Counted from the stretch's first letter, positions 33,216 to 61,235 are shown. The stretch: 64,000 bases of DNA from Pseudodesulfovibrio indicus (GCF_001563225.1 NZ_CP014206.1:3513486-3577485), one strand, 5' to 3'. Notes: generated by a model from the sequence alone, not told the origin. Translations and numbers: made by a program.

Positions 33216-33277
33216 GCGGTCATCCTTGATACAGAAGTCCCCGCCCCCGGCATGCGGAGGGTCCGGACGGACACCGG

Positions 33278-35926: not shown

Positions 35927-35948
35927 CCATCCAGGGAAACGACCCGAC

Positions 35949-38118: not shown

Positions 38119-38723
38119 TGACAACCGCCCCCACCCGCATTCCCCCCAGGACCGGAAAGGCCGTGTTCCTCAAGGCCGGCCAGGCCATCAAGATCATCAA
38201 CACCCACGGGCAGCAGATCGTCGACACCTGGGCCTTCAACCCCTATGACATGAGCGAATACCTGTCCATGCAGCACACCCGGGCCTATCTGAACAAGGTC
38301 ATCCCCGGGGTGGGCGACGCCCTGGTCTCCAACCGCCGCCGCCCCCTGCTGCACCTGGAGGAGGACACCTCCCCGGGCGTCCACGACACCCTGATCGCCG
38401 CCTGCGACATCTACCGCTACATCGGCCTGGGCGTGGACGAATACCACGACAACTGCCAGGACAACATGTACGCGGCCATGGCCGCCCTGGGCCACACGCC
38501 GTGCACCTGCCCCAGCCCCCTGAACCTGTGGATGAACACCCCGGCCACGGACAACGTCGTCGAGTGGCTGCCCCCGGTCTCCAAGCCCGGGGACTATGTG
38601 GTCCTGCGCGCGGCCGTCGACTGCGTGGTGGCCATGTCCAACTGCCCCCAGGACATCCTGCCCATCAACGGGGAGGCCTGCGATCCCACCGAAACCCACT
38701 TCGAGATTCTCGAGGCGAAATAA
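38118..38723 (+). CDS. conserved protein, DUF1989/urea-carboxylase-associated-like (assignment tentative)
   Basis: 201 aa, good codon usage, start overlaps ATPase stop. Confidence 0.75.
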   Translation: MTTAPTRIPPRTGKAVFLKAGQAIKIINTHGQQIVDTWAFNPYDMSEYLSMQHTRAYLNKVIPGVGDALVSNRRRPLLHLEEDTSPGVHDTLIAACDIYRYIGLGVDEYHDNCQDNMYAAMAALGHTPCTCPSPLNLWMNTPATDNVVEWLPPVSKPGDYVVLRAAVDCVVAMSNCPQDILPINGEACDPTETHFEILEAK

Positions 38724-39851: not shown

Positions 39852-40269
39852 CCGGCCCCGAACCGGCGTCCCGTCCGGCCTTCCCGCCGTGCCATGTCGT
39901 GGGAAAGAGTGGACTTTTGAAAGCACCTGTGCTGAAATTCCGCAAATTTGAGAAGGGGTGGCCTGCAGCCGCCCGGGTTCAAGCCCTTCGGGCGCGGCGT
40001 GGGATGGGGTATCGCTGCCGCTGCCGGGGTTTCCAGGTTATTCGAGAGCGTCAGCCGCCGCCGGGCTTCCCGGTGCCGTCCCGGGTCCCCGGAACGGCGG
40101 GAATGTCGCGGCCTTGGGCCGGTGCCGGTCTTTCCGGCGCGGACAGGGCGGAGCGCGGCGGGCCGCTCATTACATATAGCTCTTGTCGGGGCACCCGCGC
40201 CGGGCCGTTTTTCATCGAGCCGGGCGCACCGCTTCCGGCAGTAATTTATTGCAGTGGAGAGTTGGTTGC

Positions 40270-41340
40270 ATGTCTAATCTCAAAATGATGCGTAAAGCGG
40301 TCGCGTTCGCGGTCGTGGCCATCCTCATGACGGCGCTGTCCGCCGGGGCCGCCGGGTTCAAGAAAGAATACAAGATGCAGGTCACGGTCGGGCCGAAGCT
40401 CTACTGGGGCATGGGCGCCACCAAGTTCGCCGAGCTGGTCGGCGAAAAGACCAACGGCCAGATCAACGTCAAACCGTACTTCGGGTCCGCCCTGCTCAAG
40501 GGCGCGCAGCTCAAGAGCTCGCAGATGGTCGCCAAGGGCGTCATCGACTGCGCCATCGATTCGACCATCAACATCAGCCCGGTCATCCCCGAAGCCAATA
40601 TTTTTCATCTTCCCTTCTTCCTGAACGACTTCGAGACCCTGGACAAGGTCAAGTACGGCCAGGCGGGCGAGGCCGTGTTTGCGGCCATGCGCGCCAAGCG
40701 CATCGAGCCGTTGGCCTGGGCCGAGAACGGCTTCCGCCAGCTGACCAACTCCAAGGTCGCGGTCAGGACCCCCGCCGACATGAAGGGTCTGCGCATCCGC
40801 GTGGTCGGCAACCCGCTGTTCATCGACACCTTCCGCCAGCTGGGCGCCGACCCGGTGAACATGAACTGGGGCGACGCGGTCGCCGGTTTCCAGCAGGGCG
40901 TGGTCGACGGCCAGGAGAACCCGGTCGGCGTGCTCATCCCCATCCAGATCTACCAGTACCACAAGTACGCGACCATGTGGAATTACCTGGTCGATCCGCT
41001 GATCATCTACTGGAACCAGCAGGAGTGGAACGGTTTCCCCGAGGAGATCCAAAACGCGATCATGGAGGCCGCCAACGAGGCGGGCCGCTTCGAAACCGCC
41101 CTGAGCCGCGCCGGACTTGACGGCGACGTCTCCCTGAACATCCTCAAGAACGAATTCAACTACACCATGGAAGTTCCGGACCCCATCGCTTTCCTGGAAA
41201 GCAAGGGCATGGAAGTCCACATGCTTACCGACGAGGAGCGGGCCGCCTTTGCCGAGGTCACCCGTCCCGTCTACGACAAGTGGGTCAAGGAGATCGGTAC
41301 CGATCTCTATGAGAAGGCCAAGGCCGACATCGGCCAATAA
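40270..41340 (+). CDS. TRAP transporter substrate-binding protein (DctP family)
   Basis: Start MSNLKMMRK signal peptide; DctP-family fold. Confidence 0.9.
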   Translation: MSNLKMMRKAVAFAVVAILMTALSAGAAGFKKEYKMQVTVGPKLYWGMGATKFAELVGEKTNGQINVKPYFGSALLKGAQLKSSQMVAKGVIDCAIDSTINISPVIPEANIFHLPFFLNDFETLDKVKYGQAGEAVFAAMRAKRIEPLAWAENGFRQLTNSKVAVRTPADMKGLRIRVVGNPLFIDTFRQLGADPVNMNWGDAVAGFQQGVVDGQENPVGVLIPIQIYQYHKYATMWNYLVDPLIIYWNQQEWNGFPEEIQNAIMEAANEAGRFETALSRAGLDGDVSLNILKNEFNYTMEVPDPIAFLESKGMEVHMLTDEERAAFAEVTRPVYDKWVKEIGTDLYEKAKADIGQ

Positions 41341-41442
41341 GCCCTTCCCTTGCCGACGATTGCGTCCCGCCCCGGAGTGGTTCTCCGGGGCGGGCTCTCT
41401 CACGGGGTTTCGCCTGCGGAACCCGAATAGCGGAGTAAGCGT

Positions 41443-41922
41443 GTGAAAAAGTTACTGTTTGGTTTCAGCCTCGAGCACTGGCTCGTGGCCCTCTGCATGG
41501 CCGGCATGGTGATCATCGCCTTCCTCAACGTCCTGAGCCGGTACATCTTTCATTTCTCCCTGGCCGCCACCGAGGAGATCACCATCAACCTCTTCGTCTG
41601 GATGACCGTCATCGGCATCGGCATCGCCTTCAAGCGGGGCGGACACATGGGCATGGTGACCTTCTTCAACCATTTCCCCCGGCGCGCGCAGAAGACGTGC
41701 ATCGTCATCTATTCCCTGCTCGCCGCCCTGCTCTTCCTGGTCCTGGACTACTACATGATCCAGGCCATCTACGACGAGATCACCCTGTTCGAGGCCAAGT
41801 CCGCCGCCCTGAACATCCCGGTGTGGATCTACTACCTGGGGCTGCCGGTCCTGTCGGTCTTCATCTTCCACGGCATCTACTGCGACGCCGTGCGCAAGCT
41901 GGCCGACCCGGAGGAGGAGTAA
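41443..41922 (+). CDS. TRAP transporter small permease (DctQ)
   Basis: GTG start with GGAG RBS; 4 TM ~160 aa. Confidence 0.8.
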   Translation: MKKLLFGFSLEHWLVALCMAGMVIIAFLNVLSRYIFHFSLAATEEITINLFVWMTVIGIGIAFKRGGHMGMVTFFNHFPRRAQKTCIVIYSLLAALLFLVLDYYMIQAIYDEITLFEAKSAALNIPVWIYYLGLPVLSVFIFHGIYCDAVRKLADPEEE

Positions 41923-41925
41923 GCC

Positions 41926-43215
41926 ATGGAATTCCTGCTCATCCTGGTCCTCTTCCTGGTGCTCATGGTCATGGGCGCGCCCATCGGCACGTCGCTCGGC
42001 GTGTCCGCGGTGGCCACCATCCTGTACTTCGACCTGGGAGCGGAGATGCTCGGCGTGAACTTCGCCTCGGGCATCGCCTCCTTCCCGCTGCTGGCCATCC
42101 CGTTCTTCGTCCTGGCGGGCGTCATCCTGGAACGGGCGGGCATCGCGGCGCACATCGCCAACTTCTTCGAGCTGCTGGTGGGCCGCGCCACGGGCGGGCT
42201 GTCCATCGTGGCCGTGCTGACCTGCATGTTCTGGGGCGCCATGTCCGGCTCCGGCCCGGCCACCACCGCCGCCGTGGGCCTGATCCTGCTCACCCCCATG
42301 CTCAAGAACGGCTACGACAAGGCCTTTGCCGGGGCGACCATCGCCAACGCCTCGGACCTGTCCATCATCATCCCGCCGTCCATCGCCTTCATCATCTACG
42401 GCAACATCACCTCGGTGTCCGTGTCCGCGCTGTTCGTGGCGGGCATCATCCCCGGCATCCTGACCGGGCTGGCGACCATGCTCGTGGCCTGGTACATCTC
42501 CTACCGCCGGGGCTACCGGGGGCTGGTCTGCCGAGGCTGCATGACCGACCTGCTCAAGGCCCTGCGCCAGTCCTTCTGGGCGATCATGGCCCCGGTGGTC
42601 ATCCTGGGCGGCATCTACACCGGCATCTTCACGCCCACCGAGGCGGCGGTGGTGGCGGTCTTCTACAGCCTGTTCGTGGCCGTGGTCGTCTACCGCTCCA
42701 TCGGCTGGCGCGACCTGATCGAGATCCTGGTGGACTCCGCCGTGACCAGCTCGGTGATCATGTTCATCGTGGCCTTCGCGGGCATCTTCACCTGGGCCGC
42801 CTCGGTCACCGGGGTCATCGACGCCATGGCCGACCTGATCATCCGCATCTCGCCCAACGCCGTGGTCATGATCATCCTGGTCAACGTCCTGCTCTTCGGC
42901 CTGGGCATGATCCTGGACGCCATCTCCATCTCGTACCTGCTCATGCCGATCCTCATCCCGGTGCTCTCCGCGTTCCACGTGGACCCGGTGTTCTACGGGG
43001 TCATCTTCATCTCGGCCCTGGCCATCGGCCAGGCCACGCCGCCGGTGGGCGTCAACCTGTTCACCGCCGCCAACCTGGTGGGCTGCGATGTGGACGAGAT
43101 CGCCAAGGAGGCGATCCCCTACGTGGTCATGGACTTCGTGGTCCTGATCATCATCTCGCTCATTCCGGCGCTGTCGCTGGTGCTGCCCCAGTGGGCCGGA
43201 CTGTATACGCCGTAA
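41926..43215 (+). CDS. TRAP transporter large permease (DctM)
   Basis: 429 aa polytopic membrane protein. Confidence 0.9.
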   Translation: MEFLLILVLFLVLMVMGAPIGTSLGVSAVATILYFDLGAEMLGVNFASGIASFPLLAIPFFVLAGVILERAGIAAHIANFFELLVGRATGGLSIVAVLTCMFWGAMSGSGPATTAAVGLILLTPMLKNGYDKAFAGATIANASDLSIIIPPSIAFIIYGNITSVSVSALFVAGIIPGILTGLATMLVAWYISYRRGYRGLVCRGCMTDLLKALRQSFWAIMAPVVILGGIYTGIFTPTEAAVVAVFYSLFVAVVVYRSIGWRDLIEILVDSAVTSSVIMFIVAFAGIFTWAASVTGVIDAMADLIIRISPNAVVMIILVNVLLFGLGMILDAISISYLLMPILIPVLSAFHVDPVFYGVIFISALAIGQATPPVGVNLFTAANLVGCDVDEIAKEAIPYVVMDFVVLIIISLIPALSLVLPQWAGLYTP

Positions 43216-43220
43216 GGCCG

Positions 43221-43255
43221 GGGGCCTTCCCGTGGCGGGGAGGCCCCTTTTTTTT
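43221..43255 (+). terminator. rho-independent terminator after dctM
   Basis: GGGGCCTtcccgtggcggggAGGCCCC followed by TTTTTTTT. Confidence 0.7.
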
Positions 43256-43513
43256 ACGCCCGGTTTTGTCTCGAACCATTTTACAATCCCGTTAAATACC
43301 CTTGATCCGAACACCAGATAATTTCAAAAATGTAACCTTTCCGGACCGCGCGAGCCGCGCTTCCGGGCGGGCTTCACATCACAGGGGCCGGGGTTTGCTG
43401 GCAATAAGCCGGGCCGCGTCTTCTGGCACTGCCATTGCACCTTCCACCGGGCCGGGACGCCATCGTCACGGCCGCGCGACATTCCATACCATCAACCGCA
43501 AGAGAGGATTTTA

Positions 43514-44506
43514 ATGAAACGCATTCTGACCATCGCGGCGGCGCTCTGCCTGGCGGTCGCCCTGTTCGCGGGCTCCGCCATGGCCGCGGGCAAGCTCAAG
43601 GTGGCGGGCATCTACACCCAGCCCATCCAGCAGAAATGGGACGCCTGCCTGCACAAGGCCCTGCAAAAGGCCGCCGACGCGGGCGAAATCGAGTACGTGT
43701 ACTCCGAGAAGGTATCCAACACCGACTACATCCGCGTGCTGCGCGAGTACTCCGAGAAGGGCGTGAACCTGATCGTGGGCGAGGCCTTCGGCATCTCCCG
43801 CGACGTGACCAAGGTGGCCAAGGACTACCCGAACGTGGCCTACCTCATGGGCGACTCCTTCGGCCCGCGCGGCGACAATCTTTCCGTGTTCGACAACTAC
43901 ATCCACGAGCCGTGCTACCTGATGGGCATGGTCGCGGGCAAGATGACCAAGACCAACAAGATCGGCATGGTCGGCGGCTATCCCATCGGCGAATGCAACC
44001 GGCTGTTCAACGCCTTCATGGCCGGGGCCAAATCCGTGAACCCGGACGTCCAGTTCAAGGTCTCCTTCATCGGCTCCTGGTATGATCCGCCCAAGGCCAA
44101 GGAATTCGCCTTCGCCCAGGTGGAGTCCGGCGTGGACGTGCTCTACGCCGAGCGCGCGGGCGTGGTCGACGCGGCCCGCGAAAAGGGCATCATCGCCTTC
44201 GGCAACGTCAACGACATGAACAAGGAAGAGAACGGCAAGGACGTGGTCGTGGCCTCCGCCCTGTGGAGCATGGACGCCGCCATCGGCCACGCCGTGCAGC
44301 TGGTCGAGGCGGGCCAGTTCAAGGCCGAGGACTACCGCGAGTGGACCATGATGGCCAAGGGCGGCGCGTCCCTGTCCCCGTTCTACGAGTTCGAGGACAA
44401 GATTCCCGCCGACGTCAAGGCGGCCGTGGCGCAGAAAGCCGACGAGATCAAGGCCGGGACCTTCACCGTCGCCATCGACGACGCCGAGCCCAAGTCCACC
44501 TTCTAA
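43514..44506 (+). CDS. BMP-family (PnrA-like) nucleoside ABC transporter substrate-binding lipoprotein
   Basis: Signal peptide, KVAGIYTQPIQQKWD, BMP fold. Confidence 0.9.
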   Translation: MKRILTIAAALCLAVALFAGSAMAAGKLKVAGIYTQPIQQKWDACLHKALQKAADAGEIEYVYSEKVSNTDYIRVLREYSEKGVNLIVGEAFGISRDVTKVAKDYPNVAYLMGDSFGPRGDNLSVFDNYIHEPCYLMGMVAGKMTKTNKIGMVGGYPIGECNRLFNAFMAGAKSVNPDVQFKVSFIGSWYDPPKAKEFAFAQVESGVDVLYAERAGVVDAAREKGIIAFGNVNDMNKEENGKDVVVASALWSMDAAIGHAVQLVEAGQFKAEDYREWTMMAKGGASLSPFYEFEDKIPADVKAAVAQKADEIKAGTFTVAIDDAEPKSTF

Positions 44507-44567
44507 ACGAACCCTCACGGCGGGCCGCTTCCCCTTGTCGGGGGAGCGGCCCGTTTTCCGGAGCTCC

Positions 44568-46106
44568 ATGCAGGACCCCATCCTGACCCTGAACGGCATC
44601 ACCAAGACCTTCGGGCCGGTGGTCGCCAACCAAGACGTGACCCTGACCCTCCATCGCGGCGAGATGCTCGCCCTGCTGGGCGAGAACGGCGCGGGCAAGA
44701 CCACCCTCATGTCCATCCTGTTCGGCCATTACGTGGCCGACGCGGGCACGGTGGAGGTGGACGGCGCGCCCCTGCCCCAGGGGTCGCCCCGCGCCGCGTT
44801 GAACGCGGGCGTGGGCATGGTCCACCAGCACTTCACCCTGGCCGGAAACATGTCCGTGCTCGAAAACGTCATGCTCGGCACCGAACCCCTGACCGCGCTC
44901 AGGCACGACCGCAAGACCGCCCTGGCCAAGCTCACGGCCCTGATGGCCCGCTTCGGCCTGGACGTGAACCCCTCGGCCAAGGTCAACGCCCTGTCCGTGG
45001 GCGAACGCCAGCGGGTGGAGATATTAAAGGTCCTGTACCGCGACGCACGCATCCTCATCCTGGACGAGCCGACCTCGGTGCTCACCCCGCAGGAGGCGGA
45101 CCACCTGTTCCACACCCTGCGCCAGATGGTCGGCGAGGGGCTGTCCGTGATCTTCATCACCCACAAGATGCGCGAGGTCATGGCCGCGTCCGACCGCTGC
45201 GCCGTGCTCCGCCAGGGGCGCGTGGTCTTCGAGTCGGCCACGGCGGACACCACCGCCGGGGAGCTGGCCCGGGCCATGGTCGGCAGCGACATCCCCAAGG
45301 CGCGCCGCCCGGAGCCGAAGCAGGGCAAGGAGATCCTGTACCTCGACTCCATCCGGGTGGATGACGCGCGCGGCAAACCGCTCCTGGACAACCTCTCCCT
45401 GAGCCTCAAGAGCCACGAAATCCTGGGCATCGCCGGGGTCTCCGGCAACGGCCAGGCCCAGCTGGCCGACCTGCTCTCCGGGCTGATCGCGCCCCGCTGC
45501 GGGCAGATCGTCATCCGGGGCAAGGCCGTGCACAACCCCACCCCGGCGGCCATGCTGGAGCGCGGCGTGGGCCGCGTGCCCGACGACCGCACCGGCACCG
45601 GCCTGGTGGCGGACATGACCGTCATGGAGAACCTGGCCACCGAGACCTACCGGCTGCCCGGCTTCGCCCGGCGCGGCGTGCTGAATTTCAAGGCGCTGGC
45701 CTCCCGCGCCAAACAACTGGTGGAAACCTTCGACATCCGCTGCCCCGGCATCGATACCCCGGTGCGCAAGCTGTCCGGCGGCAACATGCAAAAGCTCATC
45801 CTGGCCCGCGTGTTTTCGAGCGCGCCCGCCATCATCATGGTCAACCAGCCCACCTGGGGGCTGGACGTGGGGGCCACCGCCTACGTCCACCAGCAGCTCC
45901 TGAACGGGGCCGAACGCGGCGCGGGCATCATCCTCATCTCCGAGGACCTCGACGAACTGCTCCAGGTGGCGGACCGCATCCAGGTCATGTACCAGGGGTC
46001 CCTGTCCGACCCGGTTCCCACCTCCGGGGTGGACCGCGCCGGGCTGGGCCTGCTCATGTCCGGCAACCGGCCCAAGGGTGCCGGGGGAGGCGTAGCATGC
46101 GCATAG
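44568..46106 (+). CDS. nucleoside/sugar ABC transporter ATP-binding protein (two ATPase domains)
   Basis: Start MQDPILTLNGI; GENGAGKTT, LSVGERQRVEI; second domain LSGGNMQK. Confidence 0.9.
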   Translation: MQDPILTLNGITKTFGPVVANQDVTLTLHRGEMLALLGENGAGKTTLMSILFGHYVADAGTVEVDGAPLPQGSPRAALNAGVGMVHQHFTLAGNMSVLENVMLGTEPLTALRHDRKTALAKLTALMARFGLDVNPSAKVNALSVGERQRVEILKVLYRDARILILDEPTSVLTPQEADHLFHTLRQMVGEGLSVIFITHKMREVMAASDRCAVLRQGRVVFESATADTTAGELARAMVGSDIPKARRPEPKQGKEILYLDSIRVDDARGKPLLDNLSLSLKSHEILGIAGVSGNGQAQLADLLSGLIAPRCGQIVIRGKAVHNPTPAAMLERGVGRVPDDRTGTGLVADMTVMENLATETYRLPGFARRGVLNFKALASRAKQLVETFDIRCPGIDTPVRKLSGGNMQKLILARVFSSAPAIIMVNQPTWGLDVGATAYVHQQLLNGAERGAGIILISEDLDELLQVADRIQVMYQGSLSDPVPTSGVDRAGLGLLMSGNRPKGAGGGVACA

Positions 46107-47146
46107 AAGCGCGGGAGAATGTCTCCCTGGCCCGCAAGGCCCTGGCCCCGGTCCTGGCCGTGGGCGCGGCCATGGTCGTCTGTTCCGCCCTGCTCGTCTG
46201 GGCCGGGGCGTCCCCCCTGGAGGGCTGGGCGCTGATGCTCAAGGGCGCGCTGGGTTCCACCTTCGCCCTGACCGAGACCCTGACCCGCGCCACCCCGCTG
46301 ATCTTCACCGGGCTGGCCGCGGCCGTGGCCTTCCGGGCCAAGCTCTGGAACATCGGGGCCGAGGGACAGCTGTACATCGGCGCGGTGGTCGCCACCTGGC
46401 TCGGCGCGGGGTCCTTCGAGATGCCCGCCTTCCTGATGATCCCCTACCTCTTCCTGGCCGGAGCCGTGGGCGGGGGGCTGCTCCTGCTCCTGCCCACCCT
46501 GCTCAAGACCAAGCTCCAGGTGGACGAGGTGGTCACCACCCTGCTGCTCAACTTCATCGTCCTGCTGTTCGTCAACTGGCTGGTCTTCGGGCCGTGGAAG
46601 GACCCCATGGCCATGGGCTGGCCCCAGGCCGCGCCGGTGGTCGATTCCGCCCTGCTGCCCCAGCTCCTGGCCAAGACCCGGCTGCACCTGGGGTTCGTCA
46701 TCGCCCTGGCCTGCGCCGTGGGCGCGTGGTGGTTCATGCGCGCCACCACCTGGGGATTCGAGATCCGGGCCGTGGGCGCGAGCCCCCGCGCCAGTCGGTT
46801 CGCGGGCATGCCGGTGAACGCGGTCATCGTGCGCACCGCCCTGCTCTCCGGCGGGCTGGCCGCCATGGCGGGCGTGTCCGAGCTGCTCGGGGTCAAGGAG
46901 TACCTGACCCTCGACCTCTCCCCCGGCTTCGGCTACTCCGGCATCGTGGTCGCCATGCTCGCGGCCCTGCACCCGCTGGGCGTGGTCGCCTCGTCCCTGT
47001 TCGTGGCGGTCATCTACATCGGCGCGGACTCCATGAGCCGGGCCATCAACATCTCCAACTACATCGCGGACGTGACCACGGCGGTCTGTCTGCTCTCGGT
47101 GCTGGTCTCCATGTTCCTGACCCGCTACCGCATCCGGTGGAGGTAG
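46097..47146 (+). CDS. ABC transporter permease
   Basis: polytopic membrane protein. Confidence 0.9.
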   Translation: MRIEARENVSLARKALAPVLAVGAAMVVCSALLVWAGASPLEGWALMLKGALGSTFALTETLTRATPLIFTGLAAAVAFRAKLWNIGAEGQLYIGAVVATWLGAGSFEMPAFLMIPYLFLAGAVGGGLLLLLPTLLKTKLQVDEVVTTLLLNFIVLLFVNWLVFGPWKDPMAMGWPQAAPVVDSALLPQLLAKTRLHLGFVIALACAVGAWWFMRATTWGFEIRAVGASPRASRFAGMPVNAVIVRTALLSGGLAAMAGVSELLGVKEYLTLDLSPGFGYSGIVVAMLAALHPLGVVASSLFVAVIYIGADSMSRAINISNYIADVTTAVCLLSVLVSMFLTRYRIRWR

Positions 47147-47147
47147 C

Positions 47148-48089
47148 ATGAACCTGTTCGACTTCCTTCTTGAGACCGGTTTCTGGATGGCCACCATCCG
47201 GATGGCCTCGCCGCTCATCTTCGGCACCCTGGGCGAGCTGATCTGCGAGCGCGCGGGCGTGCTCAACCTCGGCATCGAGGGCATCATGTCCGCCGGGTGC
47301 ATGGCGGGCTGGATGTGGGTCTACCTCGGCGGCGACCTGTGGACCGGCGTGCTCTTCGCGGCCTTTGTGGGCGCGATGTTCGGGCTGCTCCACGCCCTGT
47401 TCACCGTGCACCTGGGGCTGTCCCAGCACGTCACGGGCCTGGGCATCACCATGCTCGGATCGAGCCTCGCGGCCTTCGTCTTCCGCATGCTCCTGCCCAA
47501 GGCCACCACCCCGCCCAAGATCGTGCCGTTCACCCCGCTCAAGGTCCCGTTCCTGTCCGACCTGCCCTTCCTGGGCGAGACCCTGTTCAACCAGACCGCC
47601 CTCACCTATCTGGCCCTCGCCATGGTCGTGGTGGTCGCCTACCTGCTCTTCCGCACCCCGCTGGGGCTGGCCGTGCGCATGGTCGGCGAAAACCCCATGG
47701 CCGCCGAGGCGCAGGGATTGTCCGTGTTCTCCATCCGCACCGGCGCGGTCATGGCGGGCAGCGCGCTCATGGCCGTGGGCGGCGCGTTCCTGACCATGTC
47801 CGCCTTTGACGCGCACTACATCGGCATGGTCAACGGACGCGGCTGGATCTGCATCGCCCTGGTGGTCTTCTCGTCCTGGAAACCGGCCAAGGCGCTGCTG
47901 GGCTGCGTGCTCTTCGCGGCCTTCGACGCCATCCAGATGCGCGTGCAGCAGCAGTCCGGCATGGCCATCCCGTACCAATTCTACTTGATGATGCCCTACG
48001 TTTTCTCCATCATAGCGCTCATCGTCATGTCGCGCCGCGCGGCCTACCCCAAGGCCCTGCTCATCCCCTTCCGCAGGGGCGAACGCTAA
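47148..48089 (+). CDS. ABC transporter permease
   Basis: polytopic membrane protein. Confidence 0.9.
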   Translation: MNLFDFLLETGFWMATIRMASPLIFGTLGELICERAGVLNLGIEGIMSAGCMAGWMWVYLGGDLWTGVLFAAFVGAMFGLLHALFTVHLGLSQHVTGLGITMLGSSLAAFVFRMLLPKATTPPKIVPFTPLKVPFLSDLPFLGETLFNQTALTYLALAMVVVVAYLLFRTPLGLAVRMVGENPMAAEAQGLSVFSIRTGAVMAGSALMAVGGAFLTMSAFDAHYIGMVNGRGWICIALVVFSSWKPAKALLGCVLFAAFDAIQMRVQQQSGMAIPYQFYLMMPYVFSIIALIVMSRRAAYPKALLIPFRRGER

Positions 48090-48105
48090 CGAAAGGGAGA
48101 ACCCC

Positions 48106-49371
48106 ATGCTCGACCTGCTGGTCAAGAACGCGCGCATCGCCGGGCGCGAAACCACGGCGGACATCGCCTGCCGGGACGGGAAGATCGTCGAGGTCGCCCC
48201 GTGCATCGAGGGCGAGGCCGCTCGGACCATTGACGCCGACGGCTGCCTGGTCACGCCCCCCTTCGTGGACTCCCACTTCCACATGGACGCCACCCTGTCC
48301 ATGGGCATGCCGCGCCTGAACCGGTCCGGCACCCTGCTGGAGGGCATCCGCATCTGGGGCGAGCTCAAGCCCGACCTGACCCCCGAGGGGTTGAAGGAAC
48401 GCGCCCTCAAGCTCTGCTCCTGGGCCGTGGCCAAGGGCAACCTGGCCATCCGCACCCACGTGGACACCACGGACCCGACCCTGATGGCCGTGGACATGCT
48501 CCTGGAGGTGCGCGAGGAGATGAAGGAGTTCATCGACATCCAGCTGGTGGCCTTTCCCCAGGACGGCGTGCTGCGCTGCGAACGCGGCGTGGAGCTCTTG
48601 AAGCGCGCCCTGGACAAGGGCGTGGACGTGGTCGGCGGCATCCCGCACTTCGAGCGGACCATGGACGAGGGCCGAAGGTCCGTGGAGATCCTCTGCGAGA
48701 TCGCGGCGGACCGGGGGCTGATGGTCGACATGCACTGCGACGAGTCCGACGACCCGCACTCGCGGCACATCGAATCCCTGACCTTCCAGACGCAACGGCT
48801 GGGCATGCAGGGCCGCGTCACCGGCTCGCACCTGACCTCCATGCACTCCATGGACAACTACTACGTGTCCAAGCTCCTGCCGCTCATGGCCGAGGCCGGG
48901 ATCAACTGCGTGTGCAACCCGCTGGTGAACATGAACCTCCAAGGCCGCCACGACACCTATCCCAAGCGGCGCGGGCTGATGCGCGTGCCCGAGCTGACGG
49001 CCATGGGGATCAACGTGTCGCTCGGCCACGACGACGTCATGGACCCGTGGTATCCCATGGGCACCCACGACATGCTGGAGGTCGCCCACATGGGCGCGCA
49101 CGCCCTGCACATGACCGGCACGGACCAGCAGGAAGCGTTGTTCGACGCGGTCACCGTCAACGGCGCGAAGACCCTGAACCTCGCGGGCTACGGGCTGGCC
49201 CCGGGCGACAACGCGGACATGGTCGTGCTCCAGGCCGCTAACCGGCTGGAGGCGCTCAGGCTGCACCCCGCCCGGCTGTTCGTCATCCGGCGCGGCAAGG
49301 TCATCTCCACCACCCCGCCGGTGCGCGCCACCGTGGAGCTGGGACGAACCCTGACCGTGGATTTCCGCTGA
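48106..49371 (+). CDS. codA: cytosine deaminase-like amidohydrolase
   Basis: 421 aa, DSHFHMD metal motif, HxH..H..D pattern of CodA family. Confidence 0.85.
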   Translation: MLDLLVKNARIAGRETTADIACRDGKIVEVAPCIEGEAARTIDADGCLVTPPFVDSHFHMDATLSMGMPRLNRSGTLLEGIRIWGELKPDLTPEGLKERALKLCSWAVAKGNLAIRTHVDTTDPTLMAVDMLLEVREEMKEFIDIQLVAFPQDGVLRCERGVELLKRALDKGVDVVGGIPHFERTMDEGRRSVEILCEIAADRGLMVDMHCDESDDPHSRHIESLTFQTQRLGMQGRVTGSHLTSMHSMDNYYVSKLLPLMAEAGINCVCNPLVNMNLQGRHDTYPKRRGLMRVPELTAMGINVSLGHDDVMDPWYPMGTHDMLEVAHMGAHALHMTGTDQQEALFDAVTVNGAKTLNLAGYGLAPGDNADMVVLQAANRLEALRLHPARLFVIRRGKVISTTPPVRATVELGRTLTVDFR

Positions 49372-49435
49372 GAGCGGTTCGCCGCCGGCAAGCACCACCC
49401 GACCTTGTACCGGCGCGGCCCGCGCCACGCAAAAA

Positions 49436-49468
49436 GGCCCGGAGTCCGAGGACCCCGGGCCGTGTTTT
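49436..49468. terminator. bidirectional terminator between convergent codA and multiheme cytochrome
   Basis: aaaaaGGCCCGG...CCGGGCCgtgtttt. Confidence 0.5.
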
Positions 49469-49483
49469 CCGGCGCGTGCGCCG

Positions 49484-51778
49484 TTACTTCTTTGTCAGGC
49501 CATAGCCCAGCGGCAGCTTCTTGAACCGGCCGCCGTAGACGATGGGATCGCCCTTGTAGCCGAGCTTCCTGAAGTCGATGTAGTCGGTGGAGCCGATCAG
49601 GTCGTCCACGTCGCGGCCCATCATCTTGAGCAGCTCGAAGTCCGCGCCCTGCTCCACCAGCTCCCGGAACTTGACCTCGCGGGAATCCTGGTGGCAGCGG
49701 TCGCAGGTCCGCTCGCCCTTGAGGCTCTCGTGGCACTGGACGCAGGACAGGGCGTGCTCCTTGGGCATGACCTCGTGCTCGATGCGCCAGTACATGTTGG
49801 TGGCGACCCACATGTACTCGCCGCTGTAGGGCAGATTGGCCTTGGCCATGCCTTCCTTGAACGCGGCCTGCCAGTCGGTCCCCTTCCAGAAGGCGGACGT
49901 GTCCTCCTTGCCGTAGGGGAACAGGTGCGGCACCAGCAGATAGCGGTGCTTGGCGTCCGCGGGCTGGATGCCGGCCATGATCTTGAACGGCGTGATCTTG
50001 GAGTGCGGGTCGTCCAGGGCGCCCACCGGACGGGTGATGTCCGTGACGACCATGGCCGCCTTCTGCTCCGGGGTCGGCTGCTCGCCCGGCAGGAACCCCT
50101 TGGCCTCCGGATTGATGGGGTCGCCCAGCAGGCGGCGCTCCATGAACCCGTTGTACCAGGCGTAGACGGGCTTGGCCGCCTCCTTCCAGCGGAAGTCGCC
50201 CTTCATCCAGTTGTAGTCCGGCTTGCCGTACTTGTCCTTGCGCACCTCGCGCTTCTTGTCCCCGGCCGTGGACCAGTCCCACCAGGTCTTCGTCGCCGCG
50301 CACTTGGAGTAGATGGGCGAGTGGCAGGCGTTGCAGGCCACGGTCTCGCAGTGCATGTTCAGGTGATGGTCGAGCAGGCTCTCGCCGTAGTGCGGCTTGG
50401 ACGTATGGCAGTCCTCGCAGGCGCGGGACCCTTCGGCCACGGGCACGGAGGTGGACCGGCCCGATATCTTGTGGTTCCGGGTCTCGTGGCACTCCGTGCA
50501 GCTGAAGTCGTAGCCGCCCATGTGGATGTCGCAGTTGCGGTCGGGCCAGTTGAGCTCGGCCGACATGTCCGCGTGCTTGACCGCGTCCCCGCCGCCGCCC
50601 GCGAAGTGGCAGACGCCGCAGGTCTGGCGGCTGGAGGGGCCGACGTTTTGGGCGACGAAGACCATGTCCACCTTGGGGTCGGGCATGCCCGCCGCGGGCG
50701 GTGCCTTGCGATAGCTGCCCGTGGTGTCGTGGCAGACCAGGCAGTCCATGTTCTCCTTGTTGGAGAAGTCGAAGGTGTTGTCCTTCCAGCCGTACCCGGC
50801 GTGGCAGGAGGTGCAGCGGGATTCGTTGCTGAGCACCGACAGGCAGAAGTTGTTCAGCGTGGTGGTGCCCTTGCCGGACAGGACGCTCTTGCGGTGCTCC
50901 ACGGTGTACGGAGACGGGCCGCGCCACAGCCAGTGGGCCGTGGTCAGCATGTCCTCGCCCGCCTGTTCGTGGCAGCGCAGGCATTCCCGCGTGACCTCCT
51001 GCGGAGAGGGGTTGTCCGGGAGCTTGACCAGCTCCTTGTGGTCCACCGGGCGCTTGGCGTGGCACCCTTCGCAACTGACCGGCCCCTGCTTCATCTGCTC
51101 ATGGCAGTCCATGCACTGCATGTGGTAGGCGGCCTTGAGCCCGATGCGCTCGGGGTCCTTCTCGGAGAAGGCGTCCTGGTGGCAGGAGCGGCAGGCCACG
51201 ATCTCGGCGGCCTCGGGGTCCTCGGGGCGGTAGTGGTGGCAGGAGGCGCAATCGCCGTTCAGGGCGGCCGAATGCTTGGCGTGCATGAACCGCACGGGCT
51301 CGTACTTGCGGTCAAAGGTGTCCACGAACTCGCTGTCCAGCAGGATGTAGCTCTGCTTCATGTCCTTGGGGCCGATGCCCAGCTTGCGCAGCCGCTGCTG
51401 GCGCAGGGGCAGGTCCTCCATGAGCACCTTGTCCACGTAGGGGTGTTCCTTGCGGGCCAGCTCCTCCGCCTTGACCTGGTCCACGGGCGACCAGCTCTCG
51501 GGCCTGGGAGTCAGATCCTTGCGCGACTTGGCCACGGGCTCGGCCTCACCGGCCGGGGGCGTGGCGGTCCAGGCCGGGGCCAGCGCCCACAGGACCGTGA
51601 CCGCGACGGCCAGGACCGACCAACCGATTATCTTCCTCGGCTTCGTCTTCATCGGGAACACCGTGCGTCCGGGGGACAACGGGGGCGTGGCGGTCCAGGC
51701 CGGGGCCAGCGCCCACAGGACCGTGACCGCGACGGCCAGGACCGACCAACCGATTATCTTCCTCGGCTTCGTCTTCAT
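49484..51778 (-). CDS. 13-heme periplasmic multiheme cytochrome c with duplicated N-terminal signal peptide
   Basis: 13 CxxCH motifs (CASCHH...CDRCHQ); true ATG at 51778 forms ATGA overlap with NrfD stop and has AGGAGG RBS; track ORF 49484..52537 is an upstream wrong-frame extension. Confidence 0.85.
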   Translation of the reverse strand: MKTKPRKIIGWSVLAVAVTVLWALAPAWTATPPLSPGRTVFPMKTKPRKIIGWSVLAVAVTVLWALAPAWTATPPAGEAEPVAKSRKDLTPRPESWSPVDQVKAEELARKEHPYVDKVLMEDLPLRQQRLRKLGIGPKDMKQSYILLDSEFVDTFDRKYEPVRFMHAKHSAALNGDCASCHHYRPEDPEAAEIVACRSCHQDAFSEKDPERIGLKAAYHMQCMDCHEQMKQGPVSCEGCHAKRPVDHKELVKLPDNPSPQEVTRECLRCHEQAGEDMLTTAHWLWRGPSPYTVEHRKSVLSGKGTTTLNNFCLSVLSNESRCTSCHAGYGWKDNTFDFSNKENMDCLVCHDTTGSYRKAPPAAGMPDPKVDMVFVAQNVGPSSRQTCGVCHFAGGGGDAVKHADMSAELNWPDRNCDIHMGGYDFSCTECHETRNHKISGRSTSVPVAEGSRACEDCHTSKPHYGESLLDHHLNMHCETVACNACHSPIYSKCAATKTWWDWSTAGDKKREVRKDKYGKPDYNWMKGDFRWKEAAKPVYAWYNGFMERRLLGDPINPEAKGFLPGEQPTPEQKAAMVVTDITRPVGALDDPHSKITPFKIMAGIQPADAKHRYLLVPHLFPYGKEDTSAFWKGTDWQAAFKEGMAKANLPYSGEYMWVATNMYWRIEHEVMPKEHALSCVQCHESLKGERTCDRCHQDSREVKFRELVEQGADFELLKMMGRDVDDLIGSTDYIDFRKLGYKGDPIVYGGRFKKLPLGYGLTKK

Positions 51779-51788
51779 CGGGACACCT
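51555..51788. repeat. 126-bp in-frame tandem direct duplication (about 1.85 copies) spanning start codon and signal peptide of the cytochrome gene
   Basis: Unit gggggcgtggcggtccaggccggggccagcgcccacaggaccgtgaccgcgacggccaggaccgaccaaccgattatcttcctcggcttcgtcttcatcggga... occurs at 51555 and again at 51681; encodes [33 protein letters not shown] twice. Confidence 0.85.
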
Positions 51789-52938
51789 CCTGTCGTTGGG
51801 CGGAAAGCACCGGGAACCAGGTCACGAACAGACGGTACAGGAAGAAGATCGCGGCCACGGACCCGGCGGTGACCAGAATCTCGCCGATGGCCGGGTAGTA
51901 CGGACTCGTCGCATACGGAGCCTTGAACGAGACCACGAACACGTTGAAGCGGTTGAGCATCACGCCCGAGACGATGAGCAGGGCCGCCGTGAAGAGCAGC
52001 CTGCGCGACCGGCGCACCGCCGGGAAGAGCAGCATGACCCAGGGCAGGATCACGCCGAGCCCCACTTCCACCAGGAAGGAACCGCTCTGGGCCGAGCCGT
52101 CCAGCAGGGTGGCGTAGGCCCCGCGCCAGATCAGGTCCCCGACCTTGAGGAACAGGTAGACGCCGAGCAGCAGGATGGTGATCCTGGACAGCGGGGTGAG
52201 CACGTTCATCTCCGACTCCAGCTTGAGCGAGGAGGTGGCGATGGTCGTCTCGACCACGACCATGGGATAGCCCACGGCAAAGGCCGAAGTCAGGAAGAGC
52301 AGCGGTTGCAGCGGCGTGGCCCACAGGGGCGACGTCTTGGTCGGCGCGATGACCATCAGGGTGCCGAGGCTCGACTGGTGCATGCAGGACAGCACCACCC
52401 CGAGGATGATGAAGACCCACATGGTCTTGTCCAGGATGCGGTCCAGGAAGGCCAGCAGCCTGATCTTGTGGCCCAGCTTTTCCGCCAGGACCGGGATGAA
52501 CTCGATCCACAGCACGGTGACGTAGGTCATGACGCACATGGCCACCTCGAACAGGGCCGAGGTGTGGTTCTGGTAGATGACCACCTTCCAGATGGCCCAG
52601 GAGCGGCCGATGTCGAAGAACACGGCCAGGGCCACGAAGGTGTAGCCCAGGGCGGCGGTCAGCAGCGCGGGCCGGGTCACGGCCTCGTAATAGTGGCGGC
52701 CCAGGATGTGGGCCAGGAAGGCGGTGGTGAAGCCGCCCGCGGCCAGGGCCACGCCCGAGGCCACGTCCAGGCCGATCCAGATGCCCCAGGGGTAGTGGTT
52801 GTTCAGGTTGGTCACGGCGGACAGGCCGTAGGTGTAGCGGACGACCAGGGTCACGCCCGCAGCGATCATCAGGGCCAGCATGACCAGGACGCCGGGTGTC
52901 CAGAAGGGTTGTGCGACGGGTTGGGGCCTATGCGTCAT
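51775..52938 (-). CDS. NrfD/PsrC-family polytopic membrane quinone-interacting subunit
   Basis: 387 aa, ~10 TM, AAGGAGGA RBS; start overlaps FeS gene stop. Confidence 0.9.
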
Positions 52939-53836
52939 GGCCGTCCTCCTTGTCGTGCTTGCGGCTGGTGTAGCCCATGACCGCGCCGAGGACCCCGAAC
53001 AGGGCCAGCGGGGACCACAGGTAGCTGAACAGCCCGCTCTGGATGGTCTCCGTGGTCTGCGGCATGGGCCGGGTGGGCAGGGCCTGGAAGCCGACCTTCC
53101 CGAAATCCACGTTGGAGATGTACATCCAGCTCGTGCCGCCCACTTCCCGCTCGCCGTAGATGTGGTCGTTGTACTTGCCGGGATCGCCCTTGATGCGCTC
53201 GCGGGCCTGGCCGAGCAGCTCGGACCGTTTGCCGAAGGTGATGGCCTCCACCGGACAGATGGACGCGCAGCCGGGCTTGCCCCCCTCCTTGGAGATGCGC
53301 TCGAAACAGAAGGTGCACTTGCGCACCCTGGGCAGGACGGGCCGGTCGTACTCGTAGGCCGGAATCTCGAAGGGACAGGCGGCCATGCAGTAGCGGCAGC
53401 CGATACACTTGTCCACGTCGTAATGCACGGCCCCGTTCTCCTTCTTGCTCAGGGCCCCGGTGATGCACGCCGAGGCGCAGGCCGGGTCCTGGCAATGCAT
53501 GCACTGCACCTTGACGAAGGTGGGGACCAGCTTGTCCCGGTCGTCGATGCGGCCGGAATAGTAGCGGTTGATGACGGTAAAGGCGTTCTGGTCCGGGCGG
53601 CGCTTGACGTCGAGGATGGTCAGGTCGTCGAACTTGATCGCGGGCTCGGGCAGGTCGTTGACCTCCTTGCAGGCCTGCTCGCACTTGCGGCAGCCGACGC
53701 AGCGGGTCAGGTCCACCAGGCATCCGTAGGGGTCCGGCGGCGCCTTCGACTGCCAGGCCTCCGCATTCTTGGGCGCCGCAGCGGTCGCCCCGGCAATCCC
53801 CAATGCGGCCAGAAAACTTCTGCGGGTAATCGGCAT
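52928..53836 (-). CDS. TAT-exported 4x[4Fe-4S] ferredoxin-type subunit (PsrB/NrfC/HmcB-like)
   Basis: [22 protein letters not shown] twin-arginine signal; four Cx2Cx2Cx3CP motifs. Confidence 0.9.
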
Positions 53837-53947
53837 TTCATTCTCCTATTAAAAGCAGACAGTTATGAATTATTCACGCACATACCATAGGGAAATTTTC
53901 GAAACAGCGCATTGATCGCGATCAAATTTTATGAAAAACCTGCACCT

Positions 53948-54628
53948 ATGAGCACATATGAAAACCTGCGACGGATTCCGCTGTTCACCGGTCTCAACGA
54001 CCAGGCGCTCCAGGCCTTGGCCGACCGGGCGAGAATGAGCGAATACGGGGCCGAAGAACGGATTGTCAGCCAATCCGACGACGTACAGGCCTTCTTCATC
54101 GTCCTGTCGGGGAGAGTGAAGATTTCCAGAAGCTCGCCCAGGGGCAAGGAGCAGATTCTCTATCTGGTGGAGGAGGGGCAGCCGTTCTGCTTCTGCACCG
54201 CGTTCACCGACCGCCCCTACCCGGTGGACGTGACCGCGCTGGAGCCGTCGCTGGTGGCCATGATCCCGGCCAGGGACATGGAAGACCTGGCCCGCAACGC
54301 GCCGGGGCTGATGCTCAAGATCGTCCAGATTCTCTCCGGACGGCTCCTGGAGGCCATGAATCTGGTCGAGGCCCTGGCCCTGCAGGGGACCCAGGAGCGC
54401 ATAGCCGGTTTCCTGCTCCACGCGGAGTCCTGCTTCGCCGACGAGCCGGGGACCGCCTTCAGCCTGCCCATCTCGCACCGTGAAATGGCCAAGATCGTGG
54501 GCACCACCTCGGAGACCCTTTCGCGGGTCATCCAGAAACTCAAGCGGCGCAACCTCATTGAAGCAAGCGGCAGGGTTATCCGGGTGGTCGACCATGCCGA
54601 ATTGTCCGACGCCGACTACGGGGAATAG
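53948..54628 (+). CDS. Crp/Fnr-family transcriptional regulator
   Basis: cNMP-binding domain plus C-terminal HTH (MAKIVGTTSETLSRVIQKL); start at MSTYENL. Confidence 0.85.
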   Translation: MSTYENLRRIPLFTGLNDQALQALADRARMSEYGAEERIVSQSDDVQAFFIVLSGRVKISRSSPRGKEQILYLVEEGQPFCFCTAFTDRPYPVDVTALEPSLVAMIPARDMEDLARNAPGLMLKIVQILSGRLLEAMNLVEALALQGTQERIAGFLLHAESCFADEPGTAFSLPISHREMAKIVGTTSETLSRVIQKLKRRNLIEASGRVIRVVDHAELSDADYGE

Positions 54629-54730
54629 GCCGATTCGCCTCGAAATGCCTGATAATAATTGAACACGGGTCGGTTTCCGGGTATTCAAGTCAATACCACC
54701 CATTGCATGGCGGTAACGGCGGAACCGGAC

Positions 54731-57948
<3,218 letters not shown>

Positions 57949-57973
57949 CTTCTTTCAACCAGGGAGAACACCG

Positions 57974-59095
57974 ATGATGCGCAAGATCATACCCGGAAAT
58001 AGGCTGAGCAAGGAAGCGATCGAGCGGCAGCACGACGAGCTGCGCAAACGCTCACCCTCCGAGTTCTTCAACTCCTTTCCGCTGCCCATGGCGGTGCTCA
58101 ACCCCCTGCGTCAGATCGTCTTCTGCAACGAACTGTTCCTGCGCACGGCGGGAATGGACGACCAGGACATCCTGGGCAAGCGGCCCGGCGAGGCCATGCG
58201 CTGTATCTACGCCGGCGACACCGAAGACGGCTGCGGCACCACGCCCCATTGCCGGGTGTGCGGCGCCCTTCGGGCCGTGATCGAGGCCATTGACGAAAAC
58301 CGGGCCTGCGAGCGGGAATGCCAATTGCTGGTCCAAGACGAGCCGGGCATCAAGGCCCGGGACCTCCGGGTCAACGCCTCCCCCTGGGTCACCCCGGACG
58401 GCCCGTTCTACATCGTGACCATCGCCGACATCGAAGACCAGAAGCGCAGGCAGACCCTGGAGCACATCTTTTTCCACGACATCCTGAACACCGCCGGCGG
58501 GGCCAAGGGACTGACCCGGATGCTGTTGGAAGCCCCGGAGGAAGACCCGCGCGAAGCCGCCGAACTGCTCGATTCCGCCCTGTTCGGGTTGGTCGAGGAG
58601 ATCAAAAAACAAAAGGACTTGCTGCTCATGGAACAGGGCCAGTTCGCCACGTCCCTGTCGGACATCGAGGGGCTGGCTGCTGTCAGGAGGCTGGCCCGCG
58701 AATTCAGGGCCCACCCCAAGAGCGAAGGCCGCACCCTTCGCCTGGCGCCGGATGCGGCCGAGGTCTCCCTCTCGACGGACCCGGTCCTGCTCCGGCGGAC
58801 GCTGGTGAACATGCTCCTGAACGCCATGGAGGCCACCCCAGCGGGCGGCACGGTGACCATCGGCGTGCGCCCGGACAACGGCGACGCCCTGTTCTGGGTG
58901 CACAACAAGACGGTCATGGACGAACCGACCAGGCTCCAGGTGTTCAAGCGCTCCTTCTCCACCAAGGGACCGGGCCGGGGGCTTGGCACCTACTCCATCC
59001 GCATGCTGACCAAAAACTACCTCCACGGCGAGGTGGATTTCACCTCCGAGGAGGGCGAAGGCACCACCTTCCGGATACGCCTCAAGGCGAGCTGA
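57974..59095 (+). CDS. cytoplasmic sensor kinase-like protein (PAS with Cys cluster + HATPase_c)
   Basis: PAS with CIYAGDTEDGCGTTPHCRVCG; HIFFHDILN H-box-like, G-box GRGLGTYS. Confidence 0.85.
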   Translation: MMRKIIPGNRLSKEAIERQHDELRKRSPSEFFNSFPLPMAVLNPLRQIVFCNELFLRTAGMDDQDILGKRPGEAMRCIYAGDTEDGCGTTPHCRVCGALRAVIEAIDENRACERECQLLVQDEPGIKARDLRVNASPWVTPDGPFYIVTIADIEDQKRRQTLEHIFFHDILNTAGGAKGLTRMLLEAPEEDPREAAELLDSALFGLVEEIKKQKDLLLMEQGQFATSLSDIEGLAAVRRLAREFRAHPKSEGRTLRLAPDAAEVSLSTDPVLLRRTLVNMLLNAMEATPAGGTVTIGVRPDNGDALFWVHNKTVMDEPTRLQVFKRSFSTKGPGRGLGTYSIRMLTKNYLHGEVDFTSEEGEGTTFRIRLKAS

Positions 59096-59107
59096 GACCG
59101 AAGCAAA

Positions 59108-59145
59108 GGGCGGCGCGCCAACCGGCGCGCCGCCCCATTTTTTCG
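59108..59145. terminator. bidirectional terminator GGGCGGCGCGCC-aacc-GGCGCGCCGCCC + T6
   Basis: perfect 12-bp palindrome between convergent kinase (+) and MCP (-). Confidence 0.6.
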
Positions 59146-59160
59146 TTTATCCGTCGAGGG

Positions 59161-61128
59161 TCAGAACCGTTCGAACTCCGCTTCCTTGTCGCCGGCCATG
59201 GACAGGTTCATGCCGAGCTGCCCCCCGCCCTGCGGCAGGGCCGCACGAGGCCTGGACGCGGATCCGACCTTGGCGGGCTTGCGCTGCCGGACCCCTGTGG
59301 TCGGGCCGCCCACGTTGAAGAAGGCCATGGTCGACTGCAACTGCTGGCCCTGGGCCGACAGCTCCTCACTGGTGGAGGCCATCTCCTCCGAGGCGGAGGC
59401 GTTCTGCTGGATGACGGTGTCCAGCTGGCTGATGGCCTGATTGATCTGGGCCGCCCCGGCGTTCTGCTCGTTGGACGCGGCCGCGATCTCCTGGACCAGG
59501 GAAGCGGTCCGCTCGATGTCCGGGACCAGGGCGTGGAGCATGGTCCCGGCCTTTTCGGCCACGGCCACGCTGTTCACGGACAGCTCACTGATCTCGGAGG
59601 CTGCCTCGCCGCTGCGCTCGGCCAGCTTGCGGACCTCGGCGGCGACCACCGCGAACCCCTTGCCGTGCTCTCCCGCGCGAGCGGCCTCAATGGCGGCGTT
59701 CAACGCGAGCAGGTTGGTCTGGCGGGCGATCTCCTCGATGATCGAGATCTTCTCGGCGATGCTGTTCATGGCCTCCACGGTCTGGCGCACGGCCTCGCCC
59801 GACTCCTTGGCGTCGCGCGCGGCCTTGTTGGCCAGGCCGTCGGTCTCCTCGGCGTTCTGGGCGTTCTGGCTGATGTTGGCGGCCATCTGCTCCATGGAGG
59901 AGGAGACCTCCTCGATGGCCGCGGCCTGCTCGGTGGCGCCCTGGGACAGGGACTCGGAGGAAGCGGACAGCTCTTCGCTGCCGGAGGCCACGTTGTCCGT
60001 GGCGCTGCCGACCTCGGCCACGACCTCGCGCAGCTTCACGACCATGTTGTTCAGGGCCGACGCCAGCACGCCGATCTCGTCCTTCTGATCGATATCCAGG
60101 GTCTTTGAGAAGTCGCCCATGGACATCTCCTTGGCAAAGCTGACGCCCTTGGCGATGGGCCGGGTGATGCCCCGGGTCAGGAACACGGCGGCCAACAGCC
60201 CCAGGAGCAGGGCCCCGGCGGAGACCACCCCGCTGGTAAGGTTTGCGGATGCAATGTCGCCGAGCATCAGCGCCTTCTGGCTGGCGCGCACGGCGCGGCA
60301 GAGTTCGTCTGCCTTGCGCGCGGCGGCCAGCATGACCTCGCCCGCCTTCCCCTGAGCAACGAGACTGGACGCGAACCTGTCGCGGTCCTCCCTATAGCTG
60401 TGCACGGCCTTTTCCACCGCCTTCAGCTGTTCGATATTCGTGGTATCCTTGAACCTGGTTCTCAGCTCTGCGGCCAGATTCAGGATGTTGTCCAGGTTTT
60501 CGTCGCTCTTGGCGATGGACTCATCGGTCATGTCCAGCATGTACGACAAGACGTGGATCCGGTTGTTGAGAAACCACTTGATCATCCGGTTGGCCTCGTC
60601 CGCCTTGAGCAGCTTGTCCTCAAGCAACTCGCGCGAGGTATCGCCCGCGGCCAGGAGCTCGCCGAACTGGGCCTTCTGCTCGAAGCGAAGGTTCTCCGTC
60701 TCGGCCATGACCTCCTCGGAACTGCCGCGCATGCCGCTCAGGGCCTCCGCCTTCTGCTTCTCCAGGGCCACGTAGTCGGCGAACCCCTTTTCATAGGCCT
60801 TCACCGACTGGACCACCTCGGCCATGCTGTCCTTGTTCGCCTGCTGATTGAGCTTTTCCGTGGTCGTCGCCACCTGCTCATAGAGCTTCTTCAAGGCCTC
60901 GGCGTGGGTAGCGAGAATCTTGTCGTCCTTGCGGAGCATGTAGTTCTTCTCCTGGACCCGCGCCTCGAGGATGTACCGGACCAACCGGTTCACGTCGTCC
61001 GCCTTGTCCACGCGGTCCGCCACGCTGACCATGCCGCGATAGCCGATGACGGCCACCAGAGCCGTCAGGATCAGCACCAAACCGAAGCCCGCCCCCAGTT
61101 TGATTCCCAACCTCAAATTATTGATCAT
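59161..61128 (-). CDS. methyl-accepting chemotaxis protein
   Basis: Start MINNLRL (GGGAGG RBS), N-terminal TM + periplasmic 4HB-like, HAMP, MCP signalling domain with methylation heptads. Confidence 0.9.
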
Positions 61129-61235
61129 AATGCCTCCCGTGGATTGACTAGTTGGTTGATGTGTACTAGTTAGTACACTGTGTACAACCAGGTCCACGGC
61201 TTGTAAACAGACACCGCGAAGATTATAATGGTTCA

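Follow-up and report, generated by a model that had tools for sequence, protein, structure and literature searches.

The octahaem tetrathionate reductase OTR of Shewanella oneidensis (PDB 1SP3) and the Hmc/Nhc complexes of the Desulfovibrionaceae are the described systems that the locus considered here resembles, and Otr has been proposed for nitrite reduction in bacteria without NrfA (PMC5276818). The locus is a gene for a 13-haem c-type cytochrome, together with the nrfD-like gene directly upstream of it, in a stretch of 64,000 nt from Pseudodesulfovibrio indicus (GCF_001563225.1, NZ_CP014206.1:3513486-3577485; hereafter the window, with positions counted from its first letter). In this sequence the start codon and the complete signal peptide of the cytochrome gene appear twice, in tandem and in the same reading frame. 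It is highly probable that the 126 nt responsible arose as a local error of assembly or consensus in the PacBio-only record CP014206 and that the organism does not have them. The real locus almost certainly has a single ATG that overlaps the nrfD stop codon (ATGA), is preceded by AGGAGG, and encodes an ordinary OTR-family cytochrome with one signal peptide.

The cytochrome was assigned to the OTR family by its scores against TIGR04315 (480.4 bits; cut-off 375) and PF11783 (Cytochrome_cB; 203 bits; cut-off 22.1). Residues 205-645 of the protein of 722 amino acids (aa) matched residues 4-417 of 1SP3 (E = 1.4e-114), and eight CxxCH motifs fall in this aligned stretch (224, 280, 304, 345, 385, 412, 440, and 637 in the numbering of the 722-aa protein). 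It differs from OTR in having an additional N-terminal c3-like tetrahaem domain (PF02085, with matches to HmcA and TmcA) and a 13th CxxCH near the C-terminus, and in the position of its gene beside those of HmcB-like and NrfD/HmcC-like subunits. In contrast to Hmc, the cytochrome is of the OTR type and not a 16-haem HmcA, and the gene table of the window holds no HmcD, HmcE or HmcF genes after it. The 722-aa form has the single N-terminal export signal seen in OTR-family homologues, whereas the apparent open reading frame (ORF) of 764 aa does not. The features of the gene start, all on the minus strand, are as follows:

49484-51652, minus strand: multihaem cytochrome c, 722 aa, predicted to be periplasmic; one Sec signal peptide, c3-like tetrahaem domain, octahaem domain of the OTR family, and an additional CxxCH.
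49484-51778, minus strand: apparent 764-aa ORF from the first start codon (ATG1), with doubled signal peptide; confined to this assembly.
51554-51657, minus strand: repeat copy 2, including ATG2 (51652-51650), the start of the deposited 722-aa protein.
51658-51679, minus strand: 22-nt spacer TTGTCCCCCGGACGCACGGTGT, coding for most of the LSPGRTVFP linker; single occurrence in the window.
51680-51783, minus strand: repeat copy 1, with TCCCG, ATG1 (51778-51776) and codons 1-33 (signal peptide); 100% identity to copy 2.
51554-51679, minus strand: the surplus 126 nt, which neither the independent assembly nor any relative has (alignment A1).
51786-51791, minus strand: AGGAGG Shine-Dalgarno site, 7 nt upstream of ATG1 and still within the 3' end of nrfD; conserved in orthologues.

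Base-by-base comparison of the minus strand identified a direct repeat of 104 nt, 51680-51783 being identical to 51554-51657. Tandem Repeats Finder reported an array at 51554-51787 (period 126, 1.9 copies, score 459), which was its sole array scoring at least 60 in the 64-kb window. The period corresponds to 42 codons and the second copy is therefore in frame. Due to the repeat the placement of the insertion is ambiguous (51554-51679 or equally 51658-51783). The similarity of the two copies is far beyond chance; whether the organism itself has both is another matter, and very probably it does not. A first-pass annotation made from the sequence alone had described an in-frame 126-bp duplication of the ATG and the entire signal peptide, and the period, the frame and the duplicated content were all recovered by our analysis. 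The two differences that it had placed near the end of the unit were not; the unit instead consists of 104 perfectly repeated nt and an unmatched 22-nt spacer. Neither does the unit begin exactly at the nrfD junction, as had been proposed, since the repeat opens with TCCCG 5 nt 5' of the ATG and closes after codon 33.

The other elements of the annotated gene start were present in the sequence. ATG1 overlaps the nrfD stop codon (51777-51775) to give ATGA at 51778-51775 and, together with the AGGAGG site, forms the junction for translational coupling that had been pointed out. Translation from ATG1 confirmed a precursor in the order signal peptide, LSPGRTVFP, signal peptide, mature protein (MKTK...TATPP-LSPGRTVFP-MKTK...TATPP-AGEAEP) with 13 CxxCH motifs. 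No record of exactly this 764-aa precursor was found in a collection of 15 billion proteins. The 722-aa form that starts at ATG2 is on record (AMK13040.1 / WP_066807331.1 / TDT90862.1) under the name “tetrathionate reductase family octaheme c-type cytochrome” of Pseudodesulfovibrio indicus. For the products of two other ORFs of the window (59161-61245 and 26730-29153) exact records were likewise lacking, probably because the called starts differ. The accession number AMK13040.1 is out of series in CP014206 relative to its neighbors AMK12551 (amidohydrolase), AMK12552 (NrfD) and AMK12553 (iron-sulfur protein), whereas the numbering in the assembly of the Joint Genome Institute (JGI) is consecutive over the same genes (TDT90861-90864). 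This suggests that the coding sequence was handled specially or added late to the PacBio record, perhaps owing to the duplication.

The window was compared with contigs assembled from sequencing run SRR8436391 (Logan), which covered window positions 2794-23816 and 37824-57777 (41 kb); positions 1-2793, 23817-37823 and 57778-64000 lay outside this comparison. No substitution was found over the 41 kb and SRR8436391 was therefore considered to represent the same strain. Only two differences were detected. The first is the 126 nt, which are absent from the contigs: these carry one repeat unit and no spacer, and the nrfD stop codon overlaps a single ATG, with nrfD ending 4 nt into the cytochrome gene. 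The second lies in a neighboring gene for a hybrid sensor histidine kinase (54707-57948, plus strand, 1080 aa; SBP_bac_3, PAS, HisKA, HATPase and receiver domains), at the following position:

55352-55356, plus strand: homopolymer run of five C (C5), C6 in the independent assembly; one base short, splitting the kinase gene.

The sixth C of the contigs restores the 1080-codon kinase ORF. The explanation that the duplication is real in strain J2T generally and was collapsed by short-read assembly bears directly on this comparison, and we regard it as very improbable. Short-read assemblers can collapse tandem repeats, and the Logan contigs derive from a de Bruijn graph of small k. With a unique 22-nt spacer, however, such a graph would be expected to fork on either side of the 104-nt repeat, so that the contig would break there, whereas the contig observed runs through the single copy over a length of 21.7 kb. 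Furthermore, in the gene list of the strain's JGI assembly nrfD (TDT90863) comes directly after the 722-aa cytochrome (TDT90862), and three more independent assemblies, all of close relatives, are single-copy.

These three close relatives, one from a JGI metagenome (99.3% DNA identity) and two from assemblies in ENA (96.5%), have the single copy with the ATGA overlap, and in alignment A1 a gap of 126 columns is present in all sequences except that of the window. A protein search of genome contigs returned 79 relatives. At all of the 26 orthologous loci (Desulfovibrionaceae, Desulfobacterales, Syntrophobacterales, and others) the cytochrome opens with one signal peptide, its start usually following ...GGVPM or ...GGxxM, that is, a GGAGG-type ribosome site in the frame of the cytochrome. 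The comparison of orthologs for single versus double signal peptides that the first-pass annotation had called for thus gave a single one in every relative examined. When the 764-aa sequence was searched against 5.8 billion protein clusters no match covered more than 96% of the precursor, and an N-terminal self-repeat was found in none of the 118 scored homologues of at least 600 aa, the best diagonal in a homologue having 8 of 15 identical residues compared to 15 of 15 in the ORF of the window. Exactly one N-terminal hydrophobic segment was predicted in 108 of these 118 homologues. Metagenome contigs contained no match to a 35-mer specific for the junction; they also contained no match to a 30-mer at the ATG, and hence yielded no further close relatives. 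A genuine duplication is expected to be reproduced in independent data of the strain or its relatives, and it was not. Among the homologues, which are otherwise bacterial, the complete genome of the methanogenic archaeon Methanolobus sp. WCC5 (NZ_CP146981.1) encodes an OTR-type octahaem domain with 45% identity.

This distribution also bears on the explanation that the duplication is old and functional and provides the cytochrome with a membrane anchor, to which we give almost no credence. The open reading frame itself speaks for it and nothing further does. Divergence would be expected of an old duplication, yet the copies are identical at 104 of 104 positions, and the duplication is missing from the other assembly of the strain and from every relative. 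In addition, the haem domain of a protein with this topology would come to lie in the cytoplasm. Each signal peptide has an n-region MKTKPRK (charge +4) and a hydrophobic core of 19 residues, and is probably cleaved at AWT/A, as judged by comparison with VWA/A and AWS/A of the orthologues. Signal peptidase cuts at the periplasmic face of the membrane and leaves the new N-terminus in the periplasm. Following cleavage of the first signal peptide at this face, the second segment could therefore span the membrane only from out to in, with the 13-haem domain left in the cytoplasm. Haem is attached to c-type cytochromes by periplasmic machinery and no attachment is possible in the cytoplasm. The linker remaining after the first cleavage has 20 residues, and its export is disfavored because of its net charge of +5. 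As a membrane helix the second hydrophobic segment is only marginal (a crude scale gives about +1.3 kcal/mol). A signal anchor would be an uncleaved helix with its N-terminus inside and its C-terminus outside and with the haem domain in the periplasm, which is not the arrangement predicted here. The annotation had offered as one reading that the first signal peptide is cleaved and the second remains as N-terminal anchor. This reading is not supported, as no homologue has a second segment or a self-repeat, and the topology, moreover, appears unfavorable in view of the positive-inside rule and of what is established about Sec export and the maturation of c-type cytochromes. Alternatively, only the second peptide would engage Sec, which would give a normal mature protein.

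The properties of the source assembly are in line with an error. CP014206 (strain J2T) was generated from two SMRT cells (single-molecule real-time sequencing, PacBio) with the hierarchical genome assembly process (HGAP) 2.3 at default settings, with 32x coverage and 90 pseudogenes, and short-read polishing is not mentioned (PMC4824256). In this record the C5 run splits the kinase into AMK12555.1 (213 aa) and AMK12556.1 (852 aa), and the tail of AMK12555.1, ...VLPPREPSRARRARA, is the out-of-frame end encoded by the C5 run of the window, which links the window to CP014206. The other assembly of the strain contains an intact kinase (TDT90866.1, 1072 aa). One-base homopolymer deletions are a familiar leftover error in PacBio consensus sequences, and the kinase frameshift, located 3.6 kb from the 126-nt insertion, is probably such a consensus error rather than a true pseudogene. 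The first-pass annotation had named recent slippage or an assembly artefact as a further possibility. It is the artefact half of this pair that our results uphold, through the single unit in the independent assembly, the PacBio-only source with 32x coverage and the consensus error 3.6 kb away.

The spacer of the array bears on slippage and other routes to a real duplication. TTGTCCCCCGGACGCACGGTGT had no match with three or fewer mismatches in the rest of the window (a 25-mer that spans it is, for example, CCCCGTTGTCCCCCGGACGCACGGT). Aligned to the 22-24 nt directly 5' of copy 1 it matched at 18 bases and mismatched at 2, with 6 single-base indels (global alignment, p about 0.01 versus shuffled spacers; fit score 10, in the top 0.15% of window positions). 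Three other origins of the array were tried and rejected. Derivation of the spacer from the 3' flank of copy 2 gave a score of -1 (p = 0.89 versus shuffles; fit 6 compared to 10 for the 5' flank). An origin from elsewhere in the window was discarded, as scores of 11-15 arise there by chance. Slippage at a GGTG microhomology predicts a period of 111 nt and a 7-nt junction, unlike the array observed. A genuine tandem duplication is expected to repeat its full unit, and in this array 104 of 126 nt are repeated and 22 nt are without an exact parent. The array has the look of a complete 126-nt unit that was written out twice, with raw, indel-rich single-molecule sequence left in the opening 22 nt of the second copy. 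The absence of any difference in 104 nt beside a scrambled stretch of 22 nt fits unpolished read sequence and not divergence after duplication.

The same features of the array are to be weighed for the explanation that the insertion does exist, but only in the culture or DNA preparation that was sequenced with PacBio, as a recent in-frame event of 126 nt (104 duplicated and 22 of filler) that is absent from the stock behind SRR8436391. We consider this explanation unlikely. The insertion is in frame with both 104-nt copies perfect, as this explanation would have it, and long reads usually resolve structures of 250 bp correctly. Moreover, both differences between the assemblies fall within 3.6 kb, in the operon and the neighboring kinase gene, and could reflect selection in culture instead of locally poor coverage; apparent misassemblies are sometimes true subpopulation variants (PMC9176272). 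However, slippage or unequal recombination yields parental sequence only, while the 22-nt junction has no exact parent and resembles an indel-riddled copy of the flank. Apart from the insertion, the assemblies differ only by the loss of one homopolymer base, and the record concerned has 90 pseudogenes; nothing similar is found in any relative or homologue, and the product would probably be mis-sorted. A more specific form of this explanation, that the J2T culture used for PacBio sequencing carried a spontaneous in-frame insertion and with it a naturally occurring precursor whose two Sec signal peptides lie in tandem, the kinase frameshift hinting at laboratory selection against the respiratory module, is in our view improbable as well.

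An error of the CP014206 assembly, which we favor, could have arisen by a failure to merge overlapping reads, and we put this mechanism forward as a proposal. Two error-corrected long reads that truly overlap would have been joined end to end in the draft layout instead of being merged, which would have caused the 22 nt and the 104 nt to be written twice. Polishing would then have perfected both of the well-covered 104-nt copies, whereas the 22-nt junction, spanned by no real read, would have kept its raw indel-rich sequence. An artefact of this kind is expected to be missing from a second, independently made assembly of the strain, to stem from an error-prone source with other consensus errors nearby, and to have a junction with a pattern like that of read errors, and the insertion in the window shows all three. 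With low-coverage assemblies of PacBio continuous long reads (CLR) made by HGAP and Quiver without short-read polishing, the window shares the PacBio-only 32x source, the homopolymer deletion and the indel-dominated junction. It differs from the familiar PacBio errors in that homopolymer indels are usual, whereas a spurious tandem copy of 126 nt in the middle of a contig is less common. A search of the literature for published spurious small tandem duplications from HGAP found none of this exact kind.

Several points weigh against an artefact. An insertion that is in frame (a 1 in 3 chance) and has two perfect 104-nt copies is also expected of a real recent event. PacBio reads normally span a repeat this short, so that a real duplication would be assembled correctly. 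The likeness of the spacer to the 5' flank is only modestly significant. The artefact is deduced from the comparison of one assembly with another and not from raw reads, and the identification of SRR8436391 as JGI Illumina data of DSM 101483 derives from sequence identity and accession context and not from a record. It is also probable that the two genome projects started from different subcultures.

The cytochrome gene is the last of three genes on the minus strand, the upstream two of which are the following:

51775-52938, minus strand: NrfD/HmcC-like integral membrane subunit (HybB/HmcC-like), predicted to interact with quinone, 387 aa, AMK12552.1.
52928-53836, minus strand: HmcB-like periplasmic 4Fe-4S protein with twin-arginine leader, 302 aa, AMK12553.1.

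The best NCBIfam match of the iron-sulfur protein was HmcB (346 bits), which is below the equivalog cut-off of 420, and the NrfD-like protein was strongly similar to HmcC at 255 bits, below the equivalog cut-off of 550. The genes are ordered iron-sulfur protein, NrfD-like protein, cytochrome, each stop codon overlapping the next start, and this arrangement suggests that the products form a single complex. The three genes are predicted to be co-transcribed and probably encode a periplasmic reductase module that is linked to quinol. The final ~50 nt of nrfD, the ribosome site and the ATGA (51775-51827, minus strand; columns 14-66 of alignment A1) are invariant at all but one position in the seven sequences of the alignment, the cytochromes of which are only 80-100% identical. 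This invariance is consistent with a putative joint constraint by the C-terminus of NrfD, the Shine-Dalgarno site and translational coupling. A protein of 1043 aa from a metagenome-assembled genome (MAG) of the Acidobacteriota is annotated as a fusion of NrfD and cytochrome, with PF03916 and OTR domains; it is either a true gene fusion at the ATGA overlap or the result of a one-base error in the MAG.

Upstream of the operon and on the opposite strand are the gene of a Crp/Fnr-family regulator (53912-54628, plus strand) and that of the hybrid sensor kinase. The longest ORF of the regulator (238 aa, with a TTG start) is not on record and other assemblies call a protein of 226 aa; the true start is probably 12 codons further downstream.

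For users of the type-strain reference CP014206 and its RefSeq copy, the practical value of these results is a flag on an apparent spurious insertion of 126 nt and on at least one homopolymer frameshift nearby. Scans for duplications that include long-read-only assemblies of that period need to check such assemblies against independent data first. If the duplication were true after all, it would be a rare natural precursor with tandem signal peptides, and probably an allele that has lost its function, not a novel means of targeting. The biological weight of the duplication is very small, as Pseudodesulfovibrio indicus almost certainly has an ordinary cytochrome with a single signal peptide.

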